The notes: a model not told the origin generated them from the letters alone. Positions 5,215-32,000 are shown, counted from the first letter of the stretch. The stretch: DNA of 32,000 nt from Candidatus Iainarchaeum sp. (GCA_028713935.1 JAQTNI010000005.1:1-32000), one strand, 5' to 3'. Numbers and translations are program-made.

Positions 5215-5784
5215 TTATGCAAACTTGTTTTTTCTGAACCAGTCAGCGTAACAACGTTCTTCAACAAATTGCCTATGTTCCACATCTGATTTTCGCACTT
5301 TAAATTTCCTTTTGCAATTCTCACAAAACCAACTCTTTGACAGAAGGCTTTTGTTAAATTTTAATTCAACGAAACACTGTGGGCAAAAAGGGCCTGTCAG
5401 TCGCACATATTCCTCTCGAGGAAATAAGTTATCAAAATTTATTGGAACATATGCAATCCATTTCATCCCATCAAATTCAAAAGAATGTTCATTTTCCCTA
5501 GCTATGCCCCCATGTAAAGGAACACCCGCAATATAAAAATTGCCTTTTCTTTGTCTATTCCTGATAAAAACAATCAATAGAACAACAAAGACAGTGAAAA
5601 ACAAAACTAATAATGCCTGCCCAAGCGGAATTGTTGTGTTCCCAATAATTGCAATAGCCAAGCCTAAAGAATCCTTAAAAACGTAAGCTGCACCGGATAG
5701 AACCAAAAAAGCAATAATTAGCTGTACCAAGATACTTTCTGTTATTCCACGAATAACACTTAAAATAAATTTTGAGCCAAACAT
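5215..5784 (-). CDS. Membrane protein with a C-terminal zinc-ribbon
   Basis: The track ORF 5215..5787 starts at TTG, and the ATG one codon downstream (5784) is preferred. It has three predicted TM helices followed by 'CPQC...CENC'. Confidence 0.55.
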   Translation of the reverse strand: MFGSKFILSVIRGITESILVQLIIAFLVLSGAAYVFKDSLGLAIAIIGNTTIPLGQALLVLFFTVFVVLLIVFIRNRQRKGNFYIAGVPLHGGIARENEHSFEFDGMKWIAYVPINFDNLFPREEYVRLTGPFCPQCFVELKFNKSLLSKSWFCENCKRKFKVRKSDVEHRQFVEERCYADWFRKNKFA

Positions 5785-5952
5785 CAAAAAATATCTTTTG
5801 CAACCTTGTTTAAAAATTAACTGAGCAGAAAATAAAGCATTTATATGACCTCGAGTTGTTCAGGGTAATTGTCAGGTCTTCATCCCGGCAAATATTCTTT
5901 GAAAGAATCATTTTTTATGGGTTTTTTATGCCTTTTGCATTCTTGTTTTTTT

Positions 5953-7422
5953 ATGGCTTTTGAGAATCAGGATAAGATTAATTTGCAGTTTAATGTCAGG
6001 AGAAGATTATCTTGGTTAGTTGAATATTTTCAAATAATTGGAACAAACCGCGATGTTTTCAACAAGGTCTTGGGAATAAATTTTGCTTTTTCCAACCTGA
6101 AAAAAGATTCAGATTACAATGAGTACATAGACCGCGCAGAGCAGGATTATTCCTTGGCAATGGTTAAAGAAAAAACAACACAAAATTTTGATTTCCTGAG
6201 AGAGATTGCAAAAAAAAGCTATGAAAAAAGCCAAGTGCTCGTTTCAACAGCAAAAAAAATTTCAATCACAAATTACAAAGACTTTTCCAATCCTGAATTG
6301 AAAATTCTTTTTGACAAAATGGCTTTGGAACTGACAGAATACCAGCCAATAATGTTTCTCATTTTTCCGATAGAGAACTATTTGGAAGAAAGCCTGCGAG
6401 AAAGGATAACTGGCATTTTAAACAAAAAAAATCTGCAAAACAAAATAACAGAGTATCTTCTGGTTTTTTCAATACCAAAAGAAGAACTTGTCGCCATAAG
6501 AGAAGAAAAATCTTTGCTTAAAATTGCGGTTGCAAAAAAACAAGGCAAAAAAATTGAATCCGGATTAGAAGAACACATCAAAAATTTTTCTTGGATTCCC
6601 ACTGATGACCCAACAGGAAAGCCCTGGGCCAAGAAAGATTTGGTTGGCAGGATAAGCTTGTTCTTGCAGTCCAATCCGGAAGAAAAGCTGAAAAAAATAG
6701 AAGCCGGCGAAGCGGAGAGAGAAGAAAAATTTGCTGAATACGCAAAAGAACTTGAATTGGATGACAAAACAATTGAGTTAATTGGGCTTGTCAGGGAATT
6801 TGTTCATTTAAGGAATTACAGAGTAGAATGCTGGGTGCAATCCCAATTCTTAATCAGACAGTTTTTGGAATTTGTGGCAAGCAAGGCAAGGCTTTCCTTT
6901 GATGAATTAATGGCATTAAGCTCTGAAGAAATAAGTGCATTCCTGGAAAGCGGGAAAATAGTTTCAAAACAGGAAATAAAAAAAAGATTGCAGGCTTACG
7001 CGTACGTAAAAATCAAAGAAAAATATACTGCTTTTTTTGGCGAAGATACAAAAAAAATTGCTTCGGAGAAAAAAGAAGAACAAAATCAAACCGAACATGC
7101 GCAGGAAATAAAGGGCAGCATTGCAAACAGAGGAAAAGCAATCGGAATTGTAAGAATAGTGAAAGAACTTTCTGACCTGCCGAAAGTCAAAAAAGGAGAC
7201 ATTCTTGTTGCATCAATGACTCTCCCGCAGTACATCCCTGCAATGGAAAAAGCAGCAGCCTTTATAACAGACGAAGGTGGAATAACTTCACACGCCGCAA
7301 TTATTTCAAGAGAACTTGGCGTTCCCTGCATTGTAGGAACAAAAATTGCAACCAAAACATTCAAAGACGGAGACAAAGTAGAAGTAAACGCGGACAAAGG
7401 AACTGTAACAAAAATAGTGTGA
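5953..7422 (+). CDS. PEP-utilising enzyme mobile (swivel phosphohistidine) domain protein
   Basis: The C-terminus 'GDILVASMTLPQYIPAMEKAAAFITDEGGITSHAAIISRELGVPCIVGT' is the PEP-utilising mobile-domain signature with its catalytic His. The start is uncertain: TTG at 5869, ATG at 5917 or ATG at 5953. Confidence 0.75.
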   Translation: MAFENQDKINLQFNVRRRLSWLVEYFQIIGTNRDVFNKVLGINFAFSNLKKDSDYNEYIDRAEQDYSLAMVKEKTTQNFDFLREIAKKSYEKSQVLVSTAKKISITNYKDFSNPELKILFDKMALELTEYQPIMFLIFPIENYLEESLRERITGILNKKNLQNKITEYLLVFSIPKEELVAIREEKSLLKIAVAKKQGKKIESGLEEHIKNFSWIPTDDPTGKPWAKKDLVGRISLFLQSNPEEKLKKIEAGEAEREEKFAEYAKELELDDKTIELIGLVREFVHLRNYRVECWVQSQFLIRQFLEFVASKARLSFDELMALSSEEISAFLESGKIVSKQEIKKRLQAYAYVKIKEKYTAFFGEDTKKIASEKKEEQNQTEHAQEIKGSIANRGKAIGIVRIVKELSDLPKVKKGDILVASMTLPQYIPAMEKAAAFITDEGGITSHAAIISRELGVPCIVGTKIATKTFKDGDKVEVNADKGTVTKIV

Positions 7423-8356: not shown

Positions 8357-8386
8357 GCTAGTTTTTCTACTTTTTTGGTTTTGTTT

Positions 8387-9118
8387 ATGGCTGATGTGAA
8401 AAAAATTGTGAAAGAAAGTTATTCCAAAATAGCAAAAACAGGCCGCGGTTGTTCCTGCAATGCAAGCAAAGAAGATATTTCAAAGCAGATTGGTTACAGT
8501 GATTCTGAATTGGCCAATGTGCCTGAAGCCAATATGGGCCTTGGCTGTGGCAATCCGACTGCTCTTGGGGAAATAAAACAAGGGGACACTGTTCTTGACC
8601 TTGGAAGCGGTGCCGGAATCGATTGTTTTTTGGCTTCAAAAAAAGTCGGAGAAAAAGGGAAAGTAATTGGAGTTGACATGACTGAAGCAATGGTTGAAAA
8701 GGCAAGAAAAAACGCCGAAAAGTATAGCTACAAAAACGTTGAATTCCGCCTTGGAGAAATTGAAGCCTTGCCAATTGAAGAAAAATCAATTGATGTTATC
8801 ATCAGCAACTGTGTGATTAATCTTTCCCCTGACAAGGAAAAAGTCTTCAAAGAGGCGAGGCGCGTTTTAAAAGAAAACGGCAGAATGTATGTTTCCGACA
8901 TTGTTCTTTTGAAAGAGCTTTCGAAAGAGCAGAGAAAGGACAAAAAATTAATTGCAGGCTGTGTTGGCGGTGCGCTTTTGAAAGAGGATTACCTTGCAAT
9001 AATAAAAAAAGCAGGCTTGAAAGCAAAAATCCTGCACGAAGACAAGCAAATAAGCAAGACACAATACAATGGCATCGCGCTTGAAAGCCTAAAACTGGAA
9101 ATTACGCTTCAGAAATAA
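8387..9118 (+). CDS. arsM: Arsenite S-adenosylmethionine methyltransferase (ArsM-type class I methyltransferase)
   Basis: The SAM motif is '[11 protein letters not shown]'. The three Cys motifs characteristic of ArsM are present: 'GLGCGNP', 'SNCVINL' and 'AGCVGGA'. The ATG at 8387 is preferred over the TTG at 8375. Confidence 0.8.
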
Positions 9119-14033: not shown

Positions 14034-14993
14034 TCAGGCTTGCGGCGCATAATACACTTTTTCTATTTTGAATATTGTTATCCAGCTGAATTCTTTTATT
14101 ATTTCCGGGAATTTTTGGCGGATTTCCCTCATAAGCTCGTGGAACTCTTTCGGGGTTTGCAGCATTGCTTCAAACTCGAGGTCTGAAACCCCAATTGCTT
14201 CTGTTACAAACATTACATTTGTTTTTGATTTTAAATAAGAAATCAGCCTTGAATATTTTTCTTCGGAAAGATTCTGCAGGCGCAGAAAAACCTTGTGCCA
14301 GGTATAGCCGATTTTTGAATAATCAAGCATGATCATATACCCAAGAATGAATTTATTTTTTTCAAGATTTTTTATCCTGTATCTGGCTGCCTTGTCTGAA
14401 ATGCCAAGCTGCTTTGCCATTTCAACAAGGGAAGTGCGGCTGTTCTTTGCAAGAACCTGCAGAATTTTTTCATCAACAGCATCTATTTCAGAGCGCGAAA
14501 ATTTTTGCTCCATCACAAGTTCATGCAGTGTTTTTTCTTTTGTAAGATACCTGTGCGAAATGTGGTGTGCCCTGACAATAAAAGAAATATCCACTTCTTT
14601 AAGGAAAGCCCCAAAATTAAAATTGAGCTCTTTCAATGCATTGTCAAAATCTTTCAAATCCTTTGACCAGAAAACCATTGCCATGTCATATGCGCCGTCA
14701 GTTTTCAGGACCCAGCCTGCATCGGGCATTTTCAGGCAGAATTTTATGATTTCATCTTCATTGTAACTGCCCTGCAGCTTAATCCAGAGCCTTGCACTCA
14801 GCCTCTGCAGCCTGAAAATATCAATCACTGCATAATAACCAAGAATTATTTTTTCATGCTCAAGCTTCTCAAGGCGCTTCTTGACAGCCTGCTTTGAAAG
14901 CCTGACTTTTTTCGCAAGCGCAGAAACAGGCTGCCTTGAATCAATATCCAGCTCAACGAGAAGGCGCCTGTCTATTAAGTCCAAACCAAGCAT
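14034..14993 (-). CDS. Tandem (duplicated) Lrp/AsnC-family transcriptional regulator
   Basis: 319 aa with two HTH_AsnC-like modules: 'LIDRRLLVELDIDSRQPVSALAKKVRLSKQAVKKRLEKLEHEKIILGY' and 'VDEKILQVLAKNSRTSLVEMAKQLGISDKAARYRIKNLEKNKFILGY'. Each is followed by a ligand-domain-sized segment. Confidence 0.8.
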   Translation of the reverse strand: MLGLDLIDRRLLVELDIDSRQPVSALAKKVRLSKQAVKKRLEKLEHEKIILGYYAVIDIFRLQRLSARLWIKLQGSYNEDEIIKFCLKMPDAGWVLKTDGAYDMAMVFWSKDLKDFDNALKELNFNFGAFLKEVDISFIVRAHHISHRYLTKEKTLHELVMEQKFSRSEIDAVDEKILQVLAKNSRTSLVEMAKQLGISDKAARYRIKNLEKNKFILGYMIMLDYSKIGYTWHKVFLRLQNLSEEKYSRLISYLKSKTNVMFVTEAIGVSDLEFEAMLQTPKEFHELMREIRQKFPEIIKEFSWITIFKIEKVYYAPQA

Positions 14994-15098
14994 AAATTAA
15001 CAATTGTAAAAATCTATTAATAAATTTTTCCTTTTATTCTTAAAATTCTTAAAAATTATTATTAATGTGGCAAGCAGCTATTAGTAGGTGGTGGTAAT

Positions 15099-15179
15099 AT
15101 GCAGAAGTGGATAACTGGCACTGTGGCAAAAAGGCACTGTAAAAATAAAACCAGTGGAGGCTGTTGTTCAAATCTTTAA
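15099..15179 (+). CDS. Small peptide P1 (26 aa) MQKWITGTVAKRHCKNKTSGGCCSNL; candidate precursor peptide
   Basis: ATG at 15099 preceded by AGGTGGTGG (SD-like), TAA at 15177. It is paralogous to P2-P4. Not in the ORF track because it is shorter than 60 aa. Confidence 0.45.
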   Translation: MQKWITGTVAKRHCKNKTSGGCCSNL

Positions 15180-15201
15180 ACGCAAAACTTGGGGTGAAAA
15201 A

Positions 15202-15285
15202 ATGGAAAAGAACTGGATTAAGAATACTTCAAAGAAAAGAGTATCTGCTTGCAAAACTCACGGCGGCATGGCTCCTCTTGTTTAG
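15202..15285 (+). CDS. Small peptide P2 (27 aa) MEKNWIKNTSKKRVSACKTHGGMAPLV; candidate precursor peptide
   Basis: ATG at 15202 preceded by GGGGTGA (SD-like), TAG at 15283. It shares the N-terminal W-[IV] motif and the K-T-x-G-G motif with P1 and P3. Confidence 0.45.
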   Translation: MEKNWIKNTSKKRVSACKTHGGMAPLV

Positions 15286-15293
15286 GCGATTGT

Positions 15294-15371
15294 ATGGAAT
15301 GGATTGAATTCAAGAAATGCGAGAGAAACCTCAAGCAAAAGAGTGGCGGCGGGTTCTGTTCAAATTGTTAA
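15294..15371 (+). CDS. Small peptide P3 (25 aa) MEWIEFKKCERNLKQKSGGGFCSNC; candidate precursor peptide
   Basis: ATG at 15294, TAA at 15369. Its C-terminus SGGGFCSNC parallels SGGCCSNL in P1, and the DNA shares TGTTCAAAT. The SD-like motif is weak. Confidence 0.4.
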   Translation: MEWIEFKKCERNLKQKSGGGFCSNC

Positions 15372-15380
15372 GTGGAACTT

Positions 15381-15470
15381 ATGAAAAAATGGGTTAAAGG
15401 CTTGCTTGCTGAAAGGCAGAAGAAATCTGATAATAAAAGGTATGCGTCTGCATCAGATATCAGGTTATAG
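15381..15470 (+). CDS. Small peptide P4 (29 aa) MKKWVKGLLAERQKKSDNKRYASASDIRL; candidate precursor peptide
   Basis: ATG at 15381, TAG at 15468. It shares the N-terminal MxKW[IV] motif but lacks the GG motif. It ends 54 nt before the radical SAM ATG. Confidence 0.35.
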   Translation: MKKWVKGLLAERQKKSDNKRYASASDIRL

Positions 15471-15524
15471 CAGCACAGAAATCTGAAAATAGTGCCGGCT
15501 TTTTTTTTCAATCAAGGATTTTCA

Positions 15525-17102
15525 ATGAAATGCATTTTGGTCCGTTTAAAGGACAATCGCAGCAGTGACGTTCTCTATTTTCCAAAAGTGGAAAGCCTTG
15601 CAATTGGATATCTTGCAGGTTACCTGCGCGCTAATTCTTTTGAAGCTGCAATTGTTGATGAAGAGCTTTCAGGCTCTTCAAGAGAGCAAACAATAAGACA
15701 ATTGCGGGATTCTGATTTGATTGGTTTTACTGCAATAGCAAAAACACAGATTTTTCAGGTAATCGAAACAACCAAAGAGCTGAAAAAGAGCAGGTGCAAT
15801 GCCCATATTTCAATTGGCGGGCATTATCCGAGTTTCTTGCATAAAGAACTTCTTTCCTTGAAAAATACTTTTGATTCTGTTGTAAGGTTTGAAGGCGAAG
15901 AAACTTTTTCAGAGCTTGCAGAGGCAATCGAAGAAAAAAAAGCCTTTTCTGGAATCAAAGGGCTTGCCTTCAAGCAAAATGGAAAGATAATTGAAAATGG
16001 ATTGAGACCGCTTATTGAAGACCTTGATTCTGTTCCTTTTCCTGCAAGGGACACTTTGCCAATGGTTTTGGAACAGGGAGGGTTGCCTGTAATTTCTTCC
16101 AGCAGAGGCTGTTATAACAGCTGCAGTTATTGCTCTATCAGCAGTTTTTACTCTGCTCCTGGCGGAAAACAATTCAGGACAAGAAGTGCGGAAAACGTTT
16201 TGGCAGAGCTTAGCGAATTAAAACAAAATTTTCCCGCAATGAATGAAATCTGGTTTGTAGATGATAATTTTGTAATGCCTGGAAGCAAAGGATTAGAGAG
16301 AACAGTCAAACTCTGCAAAGGCATAAAAAATCTTGGCCTGGAATTCCAGATTTACTTGCGCGCCAACCACATCAACAAAAAATTGCTGTGCCTGCTTAAG
16401 GCAAGCGGCCTGCAAAATATTTTTATTGGCGCCGAGGCAGCAAATGATTTTACTTTGCAGGCTCTTTTCAACAAAAATATTTCTGTGGAGCAAACCCGCA
16501 AAGCAATAAAACTGTGCAATCAAATGAAAATCAGCATTGACCCCGGCTTTATAATGTTTCATCCCTGGAGCACAATGAAAGAAATAGAAGAAAACATAAA
16601 ATTCTTGGAAGAAACAAAACAATTCACTCTTTATGGCATTGCAAGCTTTCTCACGCCTTATTCCTTTACCCCAATTGGCAAAAAAATGCTCAGCAAAGAA
16701 TTGGCCTACAAAAAGCCGGCTGTTCTGCCTGCACAGAAACTCAATGATTTTGTGCCTTATGAAATAATGAACGAAAAAGCAGAATTGTTGCTTTGCCTTA
16801 CTCTGGATGCTTTCGAAGAATTCAGCCGACTGCCAAAAATTTTTTCAAAACTAAAGCAAAAAATAAGGAAGCTAAAATCTGAAAAAAATCAAGATGCGAT
16901 TGTGCTTGAAAAAAAATGGCTTTTTGAAATCAAAAAAATGAACCAGTCAGGAATGCGCTTTTTCAAGGAATTGTTTTTTTTCATCAAGGCAGCAGAGTTA
17001 AGCGACAATGAAATAAAGCCTTTTTTTGAAAAATTCAGGGCAAGAATCAAGGCAGAAATTGAAGAAACAGCAAAAGGGCTGGAAGAACTGGTTAACAACT
17101 AA
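15525..17102 (+). CDS. B12-binding-domain radical SAM enzyme (class B rSAM)
   Basis: The N-terminal ~150 aa have a Rossmann-like B12-binding domain pattern. The radical SAM cluster motif is 'SSSRGCYNSCSYCS' (CxxxCxxC). The ATG at 15525 (MKCILV) is preferred over the GTG at 15492. Confidence 0.85.
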   Translation: MKCILVRLKDNRSSDVLYFPKVESLAIGYLAGYLRANSFEAAIVDEELSGSSREQTIRQLRDSDLIGFTAIAKTQIFQVIETTKELKKSRCNAHISIGGHYPSFLHKELLSLKNTFDSVVRFEGEETFSELAEAIEEKKAFSGIKGLAFKQNGKIIENGLRPLIEDLDSVPFPARDTLPMVLEQGGLPVISSSRGCYNSCSYCSISSFYSAPGGKQFRTRSAENVLAELSELKQNFPAMNEIWFVDDNFVMPGSKGLERTVKLCKGIKNLGLEFQIYLRANHINKKLLCLLKASGLQNIFIGAEAANDFTLQALFNKNISVEQTRKAIKLCNQMKISIDPGFIMFHPWSTMKEIEENIKFLEETKQFTLYGIASFLTPYSFTPIGKKMLSKELAYKKPAVLPAQKLNDFVPYEIMNEKAELLLCLTLDAFEEFSRLPKIFSKLKQKIRKLKSEKNQDAIVLEKKWLFEIKKMNQSGMRFFKELFFFIKAAELSDNEIKPFFEKFRARIKAEIEETAKGLEELVNN

Positions 17103-17675: not shown

Positions 17676-18251
17676 TTAATTTTCCAGAATTTCCCTTATT
17701 TTTTTTGCAACGCTTCCTTTTGGATTTCTGAAAAGGAAGGCCTGCAATTGGTTGAAGTTTTTGCTTTTCCTTGCCTGAGAGGCTTTTTCAAAATCAATTA
17801 TTATTGGCAGGAAATTTTTTTTCACCAAAATGTTTGCGCCCCTGCCTGCAAGCTGGCCATGGCTTAATCCGATTTCATCAAGTTTTTTTGCCTGTTCAAG
17901 AAGTGAATCAAGGCATTTCTGCAGATGTTTTTTTTGGGGATTTTGAAAAAGCCATTTTGAAAAAGGGATTCCTTCAATAAATTCCATCAGCACAATTCTT
18001 TTTTCACAATCAAAGCAGATTAATTTCGGGCCAATTCCAATTCTGTTTGCGGCTTTCAAATTTGCAGCTTCTTTTTCAACCATTCTTTTGCGCTGGCTTT
18101 TTTGCTTTTCAACTTTTGCGGCAAATTTTTTTCCTTTCCTGTTTTTCACCAAAAAAATTTCGCTGCTCCAGCCCTTTGAAATTTTTTCAGCAAGCTCCAA
18201 GTTTTTTTCATTCAAAAATCCAGCCAATCGCAAAGCAGAATCAGGAATCAT
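17676..18251 (-). CDS. Small Bud32/RIO-like kinase-fold protein
   Basis: 'GWSSEIFLVKNRKGKKFAAKVEK' looks like a glycine loop plus VAIK-like Lys. 'LMEFIEG' looks like the hinge. 'HGQLAGRGANILV' is the catalytic-loop position, and 'IIIDFEKAS' is DFG-like. The ATG at 18251 is preferred over the TTG at 18266. Confidence 0.5.
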   Translation of the reverse strand: MIPDSALRLAGFLNEKNLELAEKISKGWSSEIFLVKNRKGKKFAAKVEKQKSQRKRMVEKEAANLKAANRIGIGPKLICFDCEKRIVLMEFIEGIPFSKWLFQNPQKKHLQKCLDSLLEQAKKLDEIGLSHGQLAGRGANILVKKNFLPIIIDFEKASQARKSKNFNQLQAFLFRNPKGSVAKKIREILEN

Positions 18252-18262
18252 AAAAACCAGTG

Positions 18263-18850
18263 TCAAGCGCCTGGCAAAATTACATCAACAAGAATCCCTT
18301 TTGTCTTGCCCTGGTCAAGAAGCTCTTCAAGAGGCTGAAACACAGGGCCTTTCATATTATGCATTACCCAGTGAGTGCCATTGCGTTTTCCAAGATACAA
18401 TACTGTGTGGGTATAAAGCCTTCTTGGATGGCTTATTTGCTCTGGGCTCCAGGGCAGATAAATCCCCAACAGGCAGCCAGGCACAAGATGATTTTCAATT
18501 TTTTCCAATGGAACAACAGGCCTTTCAATTCTGCTTGAACCCCAACCAGTTTTTGTTGCAAGCCTTAAGGACAAATGATTCCATTTCGCCAGGTCCCATG
18601 CATGGCCTTTTTCATAATCCAGCCCGAAAATAATTTTTGCAACCCTTACAGCATAGCCAGCACAATTACCATCTTTGTTAAAATCCTTGGTTCTGCCTTT
18701 CCTGTCAGTTTCAATTGGAACACGAATTGCATTGCCGGTTCCAATTGCAGTTAATCCTGCCTGTGCAAGCCCCGGAATCCTTTCACTCCCTACTAAGTGG
18801 GAAACCCTTGGCTTAGAAAAAATCCTTTTCAGCCTGCGCATTCCCCTCAT
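18263..18850 (-). CDS. Putative papain-like / NlpC-P60-like cysteine hydrolase
   Basis: 195-aa ORF. 'DGNCAGYAVRV' is a candidate nucleophile Cys, and 'YTHTVLYLGK' and 'HWVMHN' are candidate His residues. The order and spacing resemble NlpC/P60. The stop abuts the kinase-fold gene. Confidence 0.4.
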   Translation of the reverse strand: MRGMRRLKRIFSKPRVSHLVGSERIPGLAQAGLTAIGTGNAIRVPIETDRKGRTKDFNKDGNCAGYAVRVAKIIFGLDYEKGHAWDLAKWNHLSLRLATKTGWGSSRIERPVVPLEKIENHLVPGCLLGIYLPWSPEQISHPRRLYTHTVLYLGKRNGTHWVMHNMKGPVFQPLEELLDQGKTKGILVDVILPGA

Positions 18851-24307: not shown

Positions 24308-24474
24308 GGGCGTGTAGCTCAGCCTGGTTGGAGCAATGGTCTTATAGAGCCTTTTCTTGCAAGCAAGAAAAGCCTCGGGAAAAGAAGCTTTTGCAATGCA
24401 AAAGCAGTATTGTCCCAAAAGAGCAAGAGGTTGAAGCAAGCCATAGGTCGAGGGTTCAAATCCCTCCATGCCCA
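24308..24474 (+). tRNA. tRNA-Ile (anticodon TAT/UAU) with a 92-nt intron at the canonical 37/38 position (intron 24347-24438)
   Basis: - Hand-folded cloverleaf: acceptor GGGCGTG/CATGCCC with discriminator A; D arm GCTC-AGCCTGGTTG-GAGC; anticodon stem ATGGT/GCCAT; loop CT-TAT-A|A; variable loop AGGTC; T arm GAGGG-TTCAAAT-CCCTC.
- Around the splice sites: 3' bulge CAA, central helix C-G, T-A, T-A and A.G, 5' bulge TAG, outer helix of 8 bp (24348-24355 with 24425-24432). This is a near-canonical BHB.
- No CCA is encoded. Confidence 0.8.
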
Positions 24475-24550: not shown

Positions 24551-24579
24551 ATTCCAAAACAAAAAAGAGCGTGGAAAAA

Positions 24580-27459
24580 ATGGGGAAACAATTGGAACAG
24601 TTTTCAAGGCAAAAGGAAGAGGAAATAAGGGAATTCTGGAAAAAACAGAAAATTTCAGAAAAGGCGCGCAGGCAGAATGCAAAATCCAAAAAAAAATTTT
24701 ATTTTATGGATGGCCCGCCATATGCAACAGGCCATATTCACATGGGAACAGCCCTGAACAAGATTCTCAAGGATGTTGCAATGAGAAGCAGGCGCATGCA
24801 GGGCTTTGATGTTTTTGACAGGCCAGGCTATGACACACACGGAATGCCAATTGAATACAAGGTAGAGCAGAAATTCGGCTTCCGCACCAAGGAGGAAATT
24901 GAAAAATTCGGCATTGAAAAATTTGTCCAGGAATGCAGGAAATTTGCAACAGAATTCATTGGAGTAATGAACAGTGAGTTTGATGATTTAGGCGTATGGA
25001 TGGACTGGGAAAATCCTTACAAGACACTTGAAAATTCTTATATTGAATCAATCTGGTGGACATTCAAAAAAGCAGAGCAAAAAGGCTATTTGTACAAGGG
25101 TCTTTATCCTGTTCATGTCTGCCCGCAATGTGAAACAGTGGTTGCCTTCAATGAAATAGAATATTCAAAGCAGACAGACACTTCTGTTTATGAAAAATTA
25201 AAGGTAAAAGGGACTGAAAACAAATATTTTGTGGTATGGACAACAACTCCCTGGACAATTCCTGCAAACACCGGAATAATGGTTCACCCGAATTTTGATT
25301 ATGTCGAGGCACAGGTAGGCGGAGAAATCTGGATTATTGCAAAAGAAAGATTGCAGGGCTTAATGACTGCAATAGAAGCGGGCTATACAATTTTGCGCGA
25401 ATTTAAGGGAAAAGAACTGGAAAACATGCAATATGAAAATCCCCTTGAAAAATATCTTGCGCTTCCCGAATTAAAAAATGCTTTCAGAGTGATACTTTCA
25501 GAGAGGTATGTGCATCTTGATGCAGGAACAGGCCTGGTTCACACTGCTCCAGGTCATGGAAAAGAAGATTTTGACGCCGGAAGAAAATCCGGCTTGCCAG
25601 CGATCTGCCCAGTTGGCTTGGATGGCTTAATGACAAAAGAAGCGGGAAAATATGCTGGCAAAAAAGCCAGGATTGTTGATGCGGAAATAATTGAAGACCT
25701 TAAAACAGAAAATGCTTTTGTTTATTCGCATCCAGAAACGCATGATTATCCAATCTGCTGGCGCTGCAAAAGCCCTTTGCTCATGCTTTCAGTTGACCAG
25801 TGGTTTTTAAGCATAAAAGAAATCCAGAAAAAAGCAATTGAACTGAATAAAGAAGTGAACTGGGTTCCTTCCTGGATGAAAGACAGGATGAATGACTGGC
25901 TTGAAAACATTTATGATTGGCCAGTGACAAGGGCAAGATATTGGGGAGCTCCCTGCCCTGTATGGGAATGCAAATGCGGAGAAAGGTTAGTAATCGGCTC
26001 TTTGAAAGAGCTTGAAAAAGCCTCTGGTCAGGAACTGAAAAGCCTTGAATTGCACAAGCCATACATTGATGAACAGGTGAAAATAAAATGCAGAAAGTGC
26101 GGCAATGAAATGAAAAGAGTTCCAGATATTCTTGATGTTTGGTTTGATGCAGGGGTTAGCAGCTGGGCAGCGCTTGGTTTTCCCCAGAGCAGCAAATTGT
26201 TTGATGCTTTCTGGCCAGCAGATTTGAACATTGAAGGCACAGATCAGGTAAGGGGCTGGTGGAATGCGCAATTGCTTTGCTCAATAATTTCTTTTGAAAA
26301 AAAGCCATTCAAGGCAATCGGCACTCACGGAATGGTTCTCGATTTGGGAAAGAAAAAAATGTCAAAATCATTCGGGAATGCTGTGCAGCCAAAAGAAGTT
26401 GTTGAAAAATATTCAAGGGATTACCTGCGATGCATGTTTGCAAAAAAAAGCACTGGCATTGACATGGCTTTTGACTGGGAAAGCCTCGAAGAAATCCACA
26501 GGTTTTTCAATGTTTTTTTCAACACATATAATTTTGCTGGAATGTATCTTTCAATTGATTTTTCAAAAATCCTAAAAACAAAAAAATTCTCTTCCAAAGG
26601 GCTTAACCCTGAAGACAAATGGATTTTAAGCAAATTCAATTCCCTTGCAAAAGAATGCATTGATTCATACAATAATTACGAATTTTTCAGGGCAGCGAAT
26701 GCAATAGAACAATTTGTAATGGAAGAACTAAGCAGGACTTACATAAAAATAATCCGCGACAGGACAGGCGGGAAAACACAAAAAGCGCTTGAAACTTCGC
26801 TTGGAACAGTATTGCTCGGCCTGCTAAGGCTTTCAGCGCCAATAATTCCGCATTCCTCTGAATTTGTTTACCGGGCACTGCGCTCAAAAACAATGCCTGA
26901 ATCAGTGCACTTGCTGCAATTGCCAATGCCAGACAAAAAACTGGTTGATTCAAAGCTGGAAACAGAATTTGAAAAAACAAAGCAATTATTGCAGGCAGCG
27001 CTTGCACTGAGGGAAGAGCAAAAGCTCAGGCTCAGATGGCCTTTAAGGGGGCTTGTGATTGTTTCAAAAACAGGAAAAGAATTCTCAGAAACAAAAAGCA
27101 TAATTGCAACAATTGCAAACGTAAAAAAAGTTTCCGAATCAAAAGTTTCCCCTGAAGGAAATTTTGCAAAAAAAGAAATTGCAGGAATTTCATTGTTCCT
27201 GGACATTGCTGCTGATGCCGCTTTGAAAGAAGAATGGGAATTCCAGGAGCTCAGGAGAAAAATACAGGAACTGCGGAAAAAAGCAAACCTTGCACCAGGC
27301 CAAAAGGCAATTCTCCTGCTTGACTGCAGCGACCCGGCCTTTACAAAAAAATTTTCAAGGCAGATTGAAGAAGAAACAAGCACAAAAATCAGGCCAGCAA
27401 AAGGGCAAATGGAAAAGCTCCTTGAAAGGGAATTTTTTGTGCAACTTGAAACCAAGTGA
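24580..27459 (+). CDS. ileS: Isoleucyl-tRNA synthetase
   Basis: 'DGPPYATGHIHMGTALNKILKD' is the HIGH region. 'WTTTPWTIPAN' and 'KMSKS' ('KKKMSKSFGN') are present, as are zinc-binding CxxC pairs. The ATG at 24580 is preferred over the GTG at 24571. Confidence 0.93.
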   Translation: MGKQLEQFSRQKEEEIREFWKKQKISEKARRQNAKSKKKFYFMDGPPYATGHIHMGTALNKILKDVAMRSRRMQGFDVFDRPGYDTHGMPIEYKVEQKFGFRTKEEIEKFGIEKFVQECRKFATEFIGVMNSEFDDLGVWMDWENPYKTLENSYIESIWWTFKKAEQKGYLYKGLYPVHVCPQCETVVAFNEIEYSKQTDTSVYEKLKVKGTENKYFVVWTTTPWTIPANTGIMVHPNFDYVEAQVGGEIWIIAKERLQGLMTAIEAGYTILREFKGKELENMQYENPLEKYLALPELKNAFRVILSERYVHLDAGTGLVHTAPGHGKEDFDAGRKSGLPAICPVGLDGLMTKEAGKYAGKKARIVDAEIIEDLKTENAFVYSHPETHDYPICWRCKSPLLMLSVDQWFLSIKEIQKKAIELNKEVNWVPSWMKDRMNDWLENIYDWPVTRARYWGAPCPVWECKCGERLVIGSLKELEKASGQELKSLELHKPYIDEQVKIKCRKCGNEMKRVPDILDVWFDAGVSSWAALGFPQSSKLFDAFWPADLNIEGTDQVRGWWNAQLLCSIISFEKKPFKAIGTHGMVLDLGKKKMSKSFGNAVQPKEVVEKYSRDYLRCMFAKKSTGIDMAFDWESLEEIHRFFNVFFNTYNFAGMYLSIDFSKILKTKKFSSKGLNPEDKWILSKFNSLAKECIDSYNNYEFFRAANAIEQFVMEELSRTYIKIIRDRTGGKTQKALETSLGTVLLGLLRLSAPIIPHSSEFVYRALRSKTMPESVHLLQLPMPDKKLVDSKLETEFEKTKQLLQAALALREEQKLRLRWPLRGLVIVSKTGKEFSETKSIIATIANVKKVSESKVSPEGNFAKKEIAGISLFLDIAADAALKEEWEFQELRRKIQELRKKANLAPGQKAILLLDCSDPAFTKKFSRQIEEETSTKIRPAKGQMEKLLEREFFVQLETK

Positions 27460-28392: not shown

Positions 28393-28466
28393 ATTTTTAT
28401 TGCGGATTTTTGAATCAGTACTGGCAAGAAAACGTTTTTTAACCCTTATTGGCTATTCTTTTAGCA

Positions 28467-31400
28467 ATGTCACGGAATATAATTCTTTTTGGATTGTTCT
28501 TAGTTTTTTTTTGCGCAGAAGTTTTAGCAACCCAAAGTATTGCTGTTATAGCGCCTAATGGCGCTCAGGATCTAAACGGAATAATTGATGTTCAGTTGAG
28601 CATTCAGAATGCAGATGATACCTTTAATCTTGATTTGAATATTTCCAGTTCCAATGACCAGAATGGATTGGTGGTTTTTAATGACGTGAACTGGTCCTAT
28701 TTGTCATGTTCTGCAAATACTTTTATTGCCTCTCCTGCAACCTGCCATTTTGCCTTACAAACCAGGAAATATCCCGACGGGAACTATTTTGTTCGAGCGG
28801 CTTTGGATGACGGCGGAACAGTTGCAGCAGATGCCAGCGATTCCTCTTTTTACATTGATAATCATGCACCAAAGATAAGCTTTGGCACGGTTGGAACAGA
28901 CAAAACGGTTTCTTTCCAGGTAAATGACAATAGTTATTTGGACAATAACATAATGGCGGTATATGAAGACACAAACACTATTCGGGTTTATATGGACCGC
29001 GGCCTTCCAAATGCCTTGCAGTGGGGAATGCACAGGATTGATTCCAACAATGTTTGGGGCATGACTCATGCAACCATTGGAACAATGTTTGGCCAACAAG
29101 AATTTTTTGATAATTTGGATACAGCACACGTTTCAACCACTGGCAGTTGGTCTACAATAACTAATTCGAGCGCATATGGCGGTTCTTATATCTATTCCTC
29201 ACAGGTCGGGGCAACTGCGACAATTACTTTTACAGGAAATAAAATAACACTATTGACCGCGAGGAATACTCTCGGGGGGCAAGCCAATGTAAAAATTGAT
29301 GGCCGTTCTGACTTGGCAAACCTTCTTCCAGTTGATGTCAATGGAAACGCGTTCATCACGTTTTATTGGGGAAGTGGTTTGGACCGTAATGCACAGATTC
29401 CCATTGCAGACGATTTGAATAGTGGAACACACCAATTAGTAATAACCCACAGGTATAATTCTGCTTATCCAAGTGGTGTAACATATGTAAGCGGAGCAGT
29501 AGACCAAAATTACCTGTATTCCTTTTCTAATCCATCTTCCTTTGTCAGCAAACAAAAAATTGTAGACGGCACCTATGCCGGAACAGCCAACGAATACGTT
29601 TTTTATTATACTGGCGGCGGCTTCATGGGAAATGGCCACGCGAACGATAAAATACAGTGGGATGCGGACGGACAGGAAATTGAACTATTGTTGGATGGAA
29701 TACCAACAACCATGAATGTGGGGGATGTAAACATTGTTCATTCTTTTGAATTTGACGAAAATTCTTTTTTAAGCCGGCCAACAGGAGCACTGGACCAAAA
29801 CATTGGAGACGTTCAGCGAAAAGAAATCTTCACAAGCGCGGGGTTAGATGTTAATTATTCCGTTAGATGGTTCAATACTGACACGCCCTATTCTCTGGGG
29901 AACAATGCATCATGCTATATCGCCATGCTGCCAATTGTTGGGGATTATAACACAAGCCAATTCGGAACAATAAACGGAACAAGATACCTTTTCCTCAAAA
30001 ACGGAACCTATGTTGGAAACGTAATAGCAACCAGTGCGCTGTTCACCACTTCCTACAGCAACCTGTATTCCGCTCTTGAAATAATGAATCCTGAAAACAG
30101 TTACACCCCGTTTTCTGGGAGAGGCACGCTTATCCTGTCATATGCAAACAACACTATAGACAAAGCCTACTTTGATATATGCCAAGGAGCCGCCATAACA
30201 CCAACAGAAAACCAAACATTTACTGTACAAAGCCGCTACACAGTCGATTACAACACTGCTTCAACCGGAACCCCAATAACAATAACCGCAACCCTTTCAC
30301 CCGGAACAGGCACTTTCAATCAGGAAACTGATTGCACTGGTTCATCGCAAGCCAGTTGTTCCTATACCGAAAATGGCATTGTTAGCGGGAACAACACTCT
30401 TTCGGTAACGGCTGCTGACAATTTGGGTTCTTCTTCAACAGCCCTGTCGAGTTTTTACTTTCCTTTTCCGCCGGATGGGAACATTGCCAAAATTGATGGT
30501 TATCCTGACAATCAGGCACTGCCTGTTTTTTCGTATGTTCGCGATGGAAATCTTACTATTGATTTTAATGTCCAAAATATTGATGTGAATAATTTGTTGG
30601 TTGACTTGAATTATTCTTCTCAGAAAACCCAAGGAACAGGGACTGTGATTGTTGCTGATTTGAATCTGAACACGTTGGGCACAACAGGGGCGTATCATTG
30701 TGAAGACACTAATTTTTTGAATGCTACGGATTGTGGAATTGACTGGAACATTGCAACTGTCCCTGACGGAAATTATTATTTGTTGCTTTTGGTGAAAGAC
30801 GGCGTTAATACGGATTTTAATTCTTCTGACAACAATTTTATGGTTGACAATACTGCTCCAACTGTCAGTATTTCTTCGCCAACTGATGGTTCTACAAGTA
30901 CTTCTTCAACAGTGACACTTCAGTATTCGGGAAGCGATTCCAATTCCGGCATTGCGCGTTATTGGGTTGCAGTGGACAGCAATGCAGCTGGCTCGTTCAT
31001 AGATAATAATCTTAATGCCAGTTATTCTTTTACTGGCCAGGTTAATGGAATCCATGTTTATTATGTGAAAGCAACTGACAATGCAGACAACAACAGTTCT
31101 GATGCAAATGTAACTGTTACTGTTTCTGTTTCAGGTGAAAACAATAATGGCAGCGGGGAAATCTGTGGCAATGGCTATTGCCATTATGCGTTTGAAACCT
31201 GTTCTTCCTGCCCAGCTGATTGCGGGGCCTGCCAAACAGCAGGCGACAATGGCAATGGGCAAGAATCTGGGCAGGGGGCTTTGACTGTAAAGCAGGAGGA
31301 AAGCGCTTTCTTAGAAAAAGAATATTTTTCTTTTGTGGATGGCAGCATTGGAATAATCGAAGAAGGCAATGAAAATCTTGGGCTGAATTTAAAAAGAATT

Positions 31401-32000
31401 GTTACGGAAAAAGAAATAAAAATTTCCAGGAGCATGAAAATGTTTTCTCTCCTGAATTCCAAGGCAGAGCAAAAAGGCTTTTTCAACAAAATAACTCTTT
31501 TTATTGAAAACATTTCCGGCAAAAATTTGGACAACTTGGAAATACTGGAAAGCATTCCAAAAGAGTTTGCGGAAAAAGCCTCACAAATAAAAAGCAATTA
31601 TCCATTTGAAACAATAAAAGAAGACCCGCTGATAAAATTCAATTTGCCAACGCTTTCTGCTGGAAAAAAAGTGGAAATAACTTATGACTTCAACAATACA
31701 AGCCAAACAAAGCAAAAAATAGAGGAAGCATTCAACAAATTGGAAGCGCCGGCAGTACTCATTGCAATGACTGAAAAAGACAATTGTTTGGGAGTTTTAT
31801 GCAATGATTCTAACTCCTGCACAGTTGATATCTGCATCGAAGGCGGATGCGCTTACAAGCCAAAATGTGTAAACGGGGCAATTTGTGACAATGGCAAGTG
31901 CATCAGGGCAACAGAAACACAACAGCCAATCCAGGAACAAGAAAAAACAATGCAAACAGACTCAATAATTATTGTAATAGTAACAGTGATTGGGATTATT
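28467..32000 (+). CDS. Giant secreted surface protein (partial, continues beyond the window) with Ig-like repeats, Cys-rich modules and a probable C-terminal TM anchor
   Basis: - Absent from the ORF track because it has no stop in the window.
- I checked every codon from the ATG at 28467 to 32000 (1178 codons) and found no in-frame stop.
- Signal-like N-terminus 'MSRNIILFGLFLVFFCAEVLA', with many N-x-S/T sequons.
- Internal repeats ('PDGNYF...FYIDNHAPKISF' and 'PDGNYY...FMVDNTAPTVSI').
- Cys motif 'CGNGYCHYAFETCSSCPADCGAC', and a hydrophobic stretch 'SIIIVIVTVIGII' at the window edge. Confidence 0.8.
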   Translation, partial: MSRNIILFGLFLVFFCAEVLATQSIAVIAPNGAQDLNGIIDVQLSIQNADDTFNLDLNISSSNDQNGLVVFNDVNWSYLSCSANTFIASPATCHFALQTRKYPDGNYFVRAALDDGGTVAADASDSSFYIDNHAPKISFGTVGTDKTVSFQVNDNSYLDNNIMAVYEDTNTIRVYMDRGLPNALQWGMHRIDSNNVWGMTHATIGTMFGQQEFFDNLDTAHVSTTGSWSTITNSSAYGGSYIYSSQVGATATITFTGNKITLLTARNTLGGQANVKIDGRSDLANLLPVDVNGNAFITFYWGSGLDRNAQIPIADDLNSGTHQLVITHRYNSAYPSGVTYVSGAVDQNYLYSFSNPSSFVSKQKIVDGTYAGTANEYVFYYTGGGFMGNGHANDKIQWDADGQEIELLLDGIPTTMNVGDVNIVHSFEFDENSFLSRPTGALDQNIGDVQRKEIFTSAGLDVNYSVRWFNTDTPYSLGNNASCYIAMLPIVGDYNTSQFGTINGTRYLFLKNGTYVGNVIATSALFTTSYSNLYSALEIMNPENSYTPFSGRGTLILSYANNTIDKAYFDICQGAAITPTENQTFTVQSRYTVDYNTASTGTPITITATLSPGTGTFNQETDCTGSSQASCSYTENGIVSGNNTLSVTAADNLGSSSTALSSFYFPFPPDGNIAKIDGYPDNQALPVFSYVRDGNLTIDFNVQNIDVNNLLVDLNYSSQKTQGTGTVIVADLNLNTLGTTGAYHCEDTNFLNATDCGIDWNIATVPDGNYYLLLLVKDGVNTDFNSSDNNFMVDNTAPTVSISSPTDGSTSTSSTVTLQYSGSDSNSGIARYWVAVDSNAAGSFIDNNLNASYSFTGQVNGIHVYYVKATDNADNNSSDANVTVTVSVSGENNNGSGEICGNGYCHYAFETCSSCPADCGACQTAGDNGNGQESGQGALTVKQEESAFLEKEYFSFVDGSIGIIEEGNENLGLNLKRIVTEKEIKISRSMKMFSLLNSKAEQKGFFNKITLFIENISGKNLDNLEILESIPKEFAEKASQIKSNYPFETIKEDPLIKFNLPTLSAGKKVEITYDFNNTSQTKQKIEEAFNKLEAPAVLIAMTEKDNCLGVLCNDSNSCTVDICIEGGCAYKPKCVNGAICDNGKCIRATETQQPIQEQEKTMQTDSIIIVIVTVIGII

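Follow-up and report, generated by a model that had tools for sequence, protein, structure and literature searches.

A conserved family of short peptide genes beside a class B radical SAM enzyme in Iainarchaeota: a credible new ribosomal-peptide modification system

Introduction

The stretch of DNA analysed here, 32,000 nucleotides from Candidatus Iainarchaeum sp. (GCA_028713935.1, JAQTNI010000005.1:1-32000; hereafter the window), carries four short peptide genes, P1 to P4 (15099-15470, plus strand), directly upstream of a gene for a class B radical S-adenosylmethionine (SAM) enzyme, abbreviated rSAM (15525-17102, plus strand). Iainarchaeota, formerly Diapherotrites, are a DPANN phylum. The small open reading frames (ORFs) are genuine protein-coding genes under purifying selection, and members of the same family accompany orthologous rSAM genes elsewhere. 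The conserved parts of the locus are three only: a divergent tandem Lrp/AsnC gene, a promoter/operator region of ∼80 nt, and the peptide-rSAM operon. No system for modifying ribosomal peptides had been known from this phylum, and the locus is a credible new one. An earlier note on this DNA had proposed an archaeal candidate resembling the loci for peptides that are made by the ribosome and modified after translation (RiPPs). Its central part, precursor-like peptide genes coupled to a class B rSAM, stands, while two of its details, P4 as the odd one out and cleavage at a double glycine, need correction.

In the mechanism that we propose, the tandem Lrp/AsnC regulator would bind a conserved palindromic operator and so control a divergent operon of one to five short precursor peptides followed by the class B rSAM. 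A common N-terminal amphipathic segment of the peptides would be the recognition leader on which the enzyme docks, and the enzyme would then modify a core residue ∼17–19 positions after a Trp, most likely by B12-dependent C-methylation of an unactivated carbon. We judge that the peptides are probably substrates of this rSAM, in a minimal RiPP-like module, with real room left for other explanations. C-methylation is the likeliest reaction by analogy with characterized peptide-acting class B enzymes such as ApyD, yet it would take up less than half of the confidence given to the substrate role. Class B rSAM enzymes catalyse other reactions besides methylation.

Results

The small genes and their conservation

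P1 (26 amino acids (aa), 15099-15179, MQKWITGTVAKRHCKNKTSGGCCSNL), P2 (27 aa, 15202-15285, MEKNWIKNTSKKRVSACKTHGGMAPLV), P3 (25 aa, 15294-15371, MEWIEFKKCERNLKQKSGGGFCSNC) and P4 (29 aa, 15381-15470, MKKWVKGLLAERQKKSDNKRYASASDIRL) are all plus-strand ORFs with ATG starts. Their coordinates and translations are exactly those given in the earlier note, and the flanks are as it described them: a minus-strand Lrp gene on one side and, 54 nt past the P4 stop, an rSAM gene with a B12-binding domain and the motif CYNSCSYC on the other. The Shine-Dalgarno-like motifs GGTGG and GGTGA are likewise present. The rSAM start at 15525 agrees with the N-termini of its orthologues (MKxxLVRL). The small genes were rightly called unannotated, as neither P1 to P4 nor longer versions starting at GTG or TTG occur among ∼15 billion called proteins, a set that does include the rSAM and Lrp proteins of the same contig (P0001 and P0135).

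Orthologous loci were gathered from single-protein look-ups, GTDB genomes and JGI metagenomes, and all related sequences are metagenome-derived. The rSAM orthologues form a group (P0001-P0029) at 45–100% identity, after which the next tier drops to ∼36%; matches in that tier that bear a source name are mostly Deltaproteobacteria. All 17 distinct loci with intact upstream sequence have one to five homologous small ATG ORFs directly 5′ of the rSAM gene, and these peptide-bearing loci cover rSAM identities from 45% to 85% (L001/9, L003/12/72, L005/76, L007, L008, L010, L011, L013, L071, L073, L074, L078, L152, L153, L154 and L160). One further locus, L151 (rSAM 81% identical), shows no peptide in the 154 nt upstream, but the first ∼20 codons of its rSAM are missing. 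This points to a contig junction and makes the locus uninformative for peptide presence. The association holds in both directions, since protein P0204, found by peptide-profile search alone (...KRYSSASDHLDYCCK), is encoded between a tandem Lrp gene and a B12-rSAM gene (L160).

When the ORFs of the orthologous loci were clustered, the only protein families that recurred around the peptides were the rSAM and the divergent tandem Lrp, with the genes beyond these varying from locus to locus. The enzyme is single-copy, and the copy number and core repertoire of the peptides vary between close relatives. In this analysis the module occurs only in Iainarchaeota-type archaeal metagenome-assembled genomes (MAGs) and related metagenome contigs; viral contigs yielded no relative of the rSAM. 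The peptide family is tiny and isolated: 5.8 billion protein clusters yielded 14 matches, and 1.84 billion representative proteins, searched exhaustively with a profile, yielded 11 relatives, all of 32–76 aa.

The peptide genes are coding

Selection was analysed on an ungapped 27-codon block from 14 genes of the P4 type (class A, described below). Mean pairwise synonymous difference (pS) was 0.78, which is saturated, against a nonsynonymous difference (pN) of 0.39. Over the nine core codons, column entropy at codon positions 1, 2 and 3 was 5.1, 1.6 and 10.9. A fixed Ser is encoded by TCT, TCA, TCG, AGT or AGC, with switches between the TCN and AGY families, and a fixed Arg by AGG, AGA or CGC. 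The same kind of synonymous variation is seen in the cores of the other two classes. The earlier note had staked its proposal on conservation beside orthologous rSAM genes and on purifying selection, and both were found.

These data effectively refute the idea that the ORFs are chance open frames in AT-rich intergenic DNA, or a non-coding RNA or repeat element. Each ORF is indeed very short, P1 to P4 are recorded by no gene caller, and searches of Pfam and NCBIfam with the peptides gave no match even at E ≤ 10. Chance would nevertheless have to produce an arrangement (four non-overlapping same-strand ATG ORFs of at least 25 aa in the 531-nt intergenic stretch) that arose in 1 of 5000 shuffles, together with conservation in ∼17 loci, variation biased to third codon positions and Ser codon-family switches. 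A non-coding RNA or repeat element is ruled out by this codon-position bias and by three further results: the peptide stretch has no Rfam match, its mRNA is less structured than shuffled controls (fold z-score +1.9), and the nucleotide repeats in the region are weak only.

Three core classes behind a common leader

The earlier note had grouped P1 to P3 by a K-[TS]-x-GG motif and set P4 apart. The comparison of loci reverses this: the P4 type is the universal member, and K-[TS]-x-GG peptides are accessory, found in some loci only. The core of the P4 type, KR[HY]ASA[ST]D(H), which we call class A, is universal across informative loci, and a homologue matching KR[HY]AS[AVS][STA][DN] lies 5′ of the rSAM gene in every informative orthologous locus. 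P4 itself has leader MKKWVKGLLAERQKK and core KRYASASD; other examples are MNRWIKVLFAKRQKKADEKRYASASDHSNSAI (L007), MESNWINSLAAERQKKFDLKRHASASDHCRFAP (L001) and MRCRTIKELLKKSQEVRFNQRYASSADHSSC (L005). There is also a long form, of 62–67 aa, ending ...GFLELVVAEAQEGRVEKRHASATDHADN..; its AlphaFold2 (AF2) model, which is of low confidence, consists of a long helix that gives way to a disordered C-terminus. The class A core KRHASASDH is invariant down to 45% rSAM identity.

Class B, with core GG[CFY]C[SAP][NQ][LFC], comprises P1 (leader MQKWITGTVAKR..., core GGCCSNL) and P3 (core GGGFCSNC) in the window, two copies in L011, and members in L152 and L153; looser variants are GGCRSSRL (L010) and GNCCRLGK (L153). 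The P3 core is near-identical to GGGFCSNL of L011 and GGFCSNF of L153, and the codons for Gly, Phe, Cys, Ser and Asn differ synonymously between them. Class C cores are [MC]APLV or P[AS]DM[PLS][FE]R and occur in P2 (core GGMAPLV), L010, L011, L071 and L152. The nearest counterpart of P2 is in L071 (...PACAPLV; ATG GCT CCT CTT GTT in P2 against TGT GCC CCC CTT GTG). Small ORFs matching the core expressions of classes A, B and C number 24, 6 and 7 in orthologous loci and 0, 0 and 2 elsewhere, the background being all other small ORFs in 886 kb of DNA (7270 small ORFs for the class B zero); the samples of class B and class C peptides are small.

A segment M-x-x-W-[IL]-x-x-[LV]-x-x-[KE]-R-Q-x-K is common to the N-termini of the peptides. 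A hidden Markov model (HMM) of class A leaders from outside the window retrieves class B and class C peptides of other loci at E-values of 1e-5 to 0.03, and retrieves P4 of the window at 0.004; such leader HMMs are short. From the Trp of this segment to the [HY] of class A the distance is 17 residues in 14/14 short forms, to the GG of class B it is 15–17 residues, and to the Met or Cys of class C 18–22 residues. The peptides thus have the bipartite build of precursors, a leader segment common to three core classes at near-fixed Trp spacing. No NHLP, Nif11 or other known leader was found in them by Pfam and NCBIfam search.

Three smaller observations concern the peptides. In six of eight class B peptides (window 15156-15179 and 15348-15371; L011, L152, L153) the last Cys is four residues from the C-terminus, giving the ends CSNL, CSNC, CSNL, CAQL, CPNF and CSNF, a layout like that of a CaaX box. 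An extra family member outside classes A to C is encoded at L003 3710-3856 (plus strand; 48 aa, or 39 aa from an internal Met), with an atypically long core rich in Cys and Pro (...MNKWLKSLTKERIEKDVRGERCSSPLERQLRGGHDCPYP). At L008 1206-1259 (plus strand), the first small ORF past the conserved promoter (MSACIKGLEGCELAQCP) resembles a shortened, Trp-less relative of the family, and may be a decaying copy.

The peptides as upstream ORFs

Their position invites an alternative in which the peptide genes are cis-regulatory upstream ORFs, encoding ribosome-arrest or attenuation peptides that tune rSAM expression. The class A ORF is always the last, 20–92 nt before the rSAM start; its C-terminal motif is its most conserved part, as in arrest peptides; and a run of nine T residues (T9, 15500-15508, plus strand) follows P4 in the window, possibly a lineage-specific archaeal oligo-T attenuator. 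As a conserved attenuator, however, T9 is ruled out: peptide-rSAM spacers at orthologous loci are mostly 20–40 nt, with T-runs of at most 5, so the run does not help to define the system. An attenuator would not be expected in up to five tandem copies carrying three different cores, long forms of 62–67 aa exist, the mRNA is less structured than its shuffled controls, and in L154 a 266-aa methyltransferase gene parts the peptide from the rSAM. We rate this explanation as improbable.

The radical SAM enzyme

The 525-aa rSAM protein matches PF02310 (57.7 bits, cut-off 32.1) and PF04055 (60.7 bits, cut-off 29.5). In its AF2 model (mean predicted local distance difference test score, pLDDT, 89), an N-terminal B12-binding Rossmann domain is followed by a TIM barrel, and three helices at the C-terminus (about residues 417–524) form a bundle. 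Both domain features of class B, the N-terminal B12 Rossmann domain and the CxxxCxxC core, are present. The only Cys residues invariant in the orthologues are those of CxxxCxxC (C196, C200 and C203), so there is no auxiliary cluster of the SPASM type. Foldseek ranks OxsB first for this model (query-normalized TM-score, TMq, 0.72), followed by TsrM, CysS, TokK, AprD4 and MgmA. By its domains and its modelled fold, the enzyme is a class B rSAM of an uncharacterized clade, with cobalamin use predicted.

No curated NCBIfam model reaches its cut-off on the protein. Scores are 138.3 bits for HpnJ (TIGR03471, cut-off 577.6), 126.4 for BchE (TIGR02026, cut-off 481.35), 122.1 for ApyD (NF050148, cut-off 750; among the three best matches), 104.6 for the ladderane-lipid rSAM (TIGR04072, cut-off 360), 69.9 for the methyl-coenzyme M reductase (MCR) glutamine C-methyltransferase (TIGR04014, cut-off 360) and 59.7 for rSAM_ocin_1, the PoyB/C-like C-methyltransferase (TIGR03975, cut-off 281.85). 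The concern, raised earlier, that the enzyme might belong to a family with a known non-peptide substrate is thus answered for the curated families: it falls in none, and its best NCBIfam scores are far below cut-off.

In bacterial contigs carrying the nearest bacterial relatives (34–36% identity), P0031 and P0033, the latter named Deltaproteobacteria (L155-L157), the rSAM gene has a conserved operon of its own, itself an uncharacterized system. Its order is a branched-chain-type ATP-binding cassette (ABC) amino-acid transporter, two to three class I methyltransferases, the B12-rSAM, an M24 peptidase and finally a protein of ∼1360 aa that lacks Pfam domains.

Are the peptides substrates?

Short precursor genes beside a modifying enzyme, the generic mark of a RiPP locus, are present here. 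A leader peptidase, an exporter or a RiPP recognition element (RRE), which are common in such loci and not universal, were not found, and this is among the observations that weigh against a substrate role. Domain scan, AF2 model and Foldseek show no RRE/PqqD-like domain in the rSAM; when ORFs from the orthologous loci are clustered, neither a leader peptidase nor an exporter proves to be conserved near the locus; and nothing there accounts for the processing and export that secreted RiPPs typically undergo. The leaders of P1 to P3 are divergent, with a leave-out HMM giving E-values of 0.33 for P1 and 5.1 for P2 and not retrieving P3, so their family assignment rests mainly on position, the W-I motif and the common core classes. 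The best profile similarities of the rSAM include HpnJ and BchE, with non-peptide substrates, besides ApyD, all of them far below cut-off. The nearest bacterial rSAM clade, at 33–36% identity, has no such peptides and lies in a different operon, so peptide substrates are not a property of the wider clade.

Several of these points would also suit a different explanation, by which the peptides are genuine small proteins and not substrates. They might serve the rSAM as accessory subunits or activators, or act on the tandem Lrp as ligands or anti-repressors, with the enzyme acting on a lipid, cofactor or other small molecule. The ladderane-lipid rSAM joins HpnJ and BchE among the nearest profiles, the best structural match, OxsB, is a small-molecule enzyme, the transporter/methyltransferase operon of the nearest bacterial relatives has no peptides, neither an RRE nor a protease or exporter was found, and homologues of rSAM lipid enzymes are reported in DPANN genomes (PMC13159169). 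The family scores in question are, however, 4–6 fold below cut-off. A common N-terminus, class-specific cores, fixed spacing and one to five copies form the pattern of a substrate family and not of a stoichiometric subunit. The variation of copy number and cores between close relatives that have a single enzyme also speaks against this explanation. We consider a non-substrate role unlikely, and continue to prefer the peptides as substrates.

For the fate of the product, cleavage after a double glycine had been suggested, as P1 to P3 have GG five residues before the C-terminus. This resembles the systems served by C39-peptidase ABC exporters. The universal class A peptides, however, lack the GG, as do most of class C; it is present only in class B and in P2 of the window. 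Neither the rSAM nor the conserved neighbourhood nor the window ORFs scanned gave a C39 peptidase, an ABC transporter or an RRE/PqqD domain, and no other protease is conserved. Because the GG is not family-wide and no protease or exporter is conserved, cleavage of this kind is not supported.

Within the substrate model, a variant that we think rather unlikely would make the modified class A peptide an intracellular cofactor, metallophore or signal, like pyrroloquinoline quinone (PQQ) or mycofactocin, and not a secreted antimicrobial. It is suggested by the invariant KRHASASDH core, the lack of a conserved protease or exporter, and the retention of the module in very small genomes; the class B and class C paralogues would then be lineage-specific diversifications. 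If true, this would be the first peptide-derived cofactor pathway with a class B rSAM, and the first in DPANN archaea. The host archaea are genome-reduced and probably cobalamin-scavenging.

Regulator and promoter

The divergent Lrp/AsnC-family gene (14034-14993, minus strand) encodes 319 aa with two HTH_AsnC-type stretches (78.7 bits), that is, a duplicated unit of AsnC helix-turn-helix and RAM-like domain in one chain. By sequence, the protein matches LrpA, FL11 and further Lrp regulators in the PDB, over residues 4–120 and 170–309. The gene is present and divergent in all 13 orthologous loci with enough upstream sequence, and also in L160. Identity to its orthologues is 28–79% and tracks that of the rSAM. 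Two other contigs carry remote homologues (33–37% identity), with unrelated genes around them.

Between the Lrp start codon and the first peptide gene, ∼80 nt (window 14994-15070) are near-invariant in an alignment of eight loci whose rSAMs are only 61–70% identical to that of the window, and this DNA is far more conserved than the synonymous sites of the peptide genes. It contains the palindrome TTAACAATTGTAA (14997-15009) and the TATA-like sequence TTATTATTAAT (15056-15066). We infer a bidirectional archaeal promoter with an Lrp operator, and the tandem Lrp is presumed to be the dedicated transcriptional regulator of the peptide-rSAM operon.

Two other roles for the tandem Lrp were considered. 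A system-specific partner resembling an RRE is not supported, given the unrelated contexts of the remote homologues and the ordinary Lrp matches in the PDB. An enzyme role of the AhbA/B or NirDL kind is likewise not supported: there is a marginal Pfam match only (28.6 bits, no stretch passing alone), and the PDB matches include no siroheme decarboxylases.

Relation to known systems

A precursor gene next to an rSAM gene is an architecture of an already known kind. New here are the peptide family and the enzyme clade, the lack of an RRE, the dedicated tandem Lrp together with its conserved operator, and the host phylum. No description of the peptide family was found in the open-access literature, an absence that is not proof of novelty. 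In ten Iainarchaeota MAGs, a metagenomic survey detected no biosynthetic gene cluster (PMC9902471), and the classes named in a survey of archaeal RiPPs are YcaO, ranthipeptide/sactipeptide, lanthipeptide and lasso only, with no class B rSAM type (PMC12144867).

The closest parallels are the RiPP C-methyltransferases PoyB/PoyC (proteusins, polytheonamides), BotRMT1-3 (bottromycin) and ApyD (aminopyruvatide). They share with the present locus a short precursor beside a class B rSAM, the domain order of B12 Rossmann domain before TIM barrel, and a target motif, putative here, near the peptide C-terminus; ApyD makes β-methyl-Tyr in a C-terminal GYLYD motif (PMC11117315). ApyD, however, carries an RRE domain, and none is seen in this rSAM by domain scan or model. 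The loci of these enzymes also differ from ours, which has no known leader, no conserved tailoring enzyme, protease or exporter, an archaeal host, and a chemistry that is predicted.

MgmA, the MCR glutamine C-methyltransferase (TIGR04014, PDB 9ccb), is likewise an archaeal class B rSAM and is a significant fold match, at rank 17. It acts on a ribosomally made polypeptide, which in its case is a large enzyme subunit, whereas the putative substrates here are dedicated small peptides encoded with the enzyme. OxsB, of oxetanocin biosynthesis (PDB 5ul2-4), is the best PDB sequence match (E 1.8e-18) as well as the best fold match, the C-terminal helix bundle included; it differs in its nucleotide substrate, an extra N-terminal domain and the lack of associated peptides, and the identity is 17%.

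PqqA/PqqE and MftA/MftC resemble the present pair in having a very short precursor with a strict C-terminal motif directly upstream of the rSAM, and in requiring no exporter. PqqE and MftC, however, are SPASM-type rSAMs with a PqqD/RRE partner, whereas the enzyme here is of class B, with no auxiliary-cluster Cys and no RRE. Paralogues with variable cores, such as classes B and C here, are atypical of cofactor precursors such as PqqA and MftA.

The locus offers a concrete, conserved and minimal pair of peptide and enzyme in Iainarchaeota that standard gene callers and family libraries have missed. With three components, and one enzyme facing up to three natural core classes per operon, it is an unusually clean case for learning how a new class B rSAM clade may act on peptides. 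The peptide motifs and the conserved operator can be used as search handles in small-ORF-aware annotation.

Neighbouring genes and other features

A few genes near the peptides are particular to single loci. At L154 2197-2997, between a class A peptide and an rSAM 55% identical to that of the window, lies a gene for a 266-aa class I SAM methyltransferase, which may be an extra tailoring enzyme. A general linkage to methyltransferases was rejected, as this insert and the methyltransferase genes at window 8375-9118 and L003 8630-9346 are unrelated apart from the SAM-binding motif. In L005, the most divergent orthologous locus, the rSAM gene is followed ∼340 nt downstream by a gene for a reverse transcriptase (RVT_1; 5922-7088, minus strand). 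In L153 only, a second rSAM gene without a B12 domain (Fer4_12 and Radical_SAM, 342 aa; 5570-6598, plus strand) lies ∼1 kb downstream.

A gene for a small RIO/Bud32-like kinase stands near the locus in the window (17676-18266, minus strand), and KR[HY]AS of the class A core looks like a site for a basophilic kinase. Among the orthologous loci, such a kinase gene recurs only beside L007, the closest relative, so the link is probably coincidental.

Farther downstream in the window, an Rfam tRNA match (52 bits) extends over 167 nt at 24308-24474 (plus strand), a short way upstream of the gene for a class I aminoacyl-tRNA synthetase (24571-27459). By ARAGORN the window has no tRNA; the match is probably an intron-containing archaeal tRNA. 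From ∼28442 to 32000 (plus strand) an open frame of at least 1186 codons, with a hydrophobic segment at its start, runs past the end of the window and probably encodes a very large surface protein.

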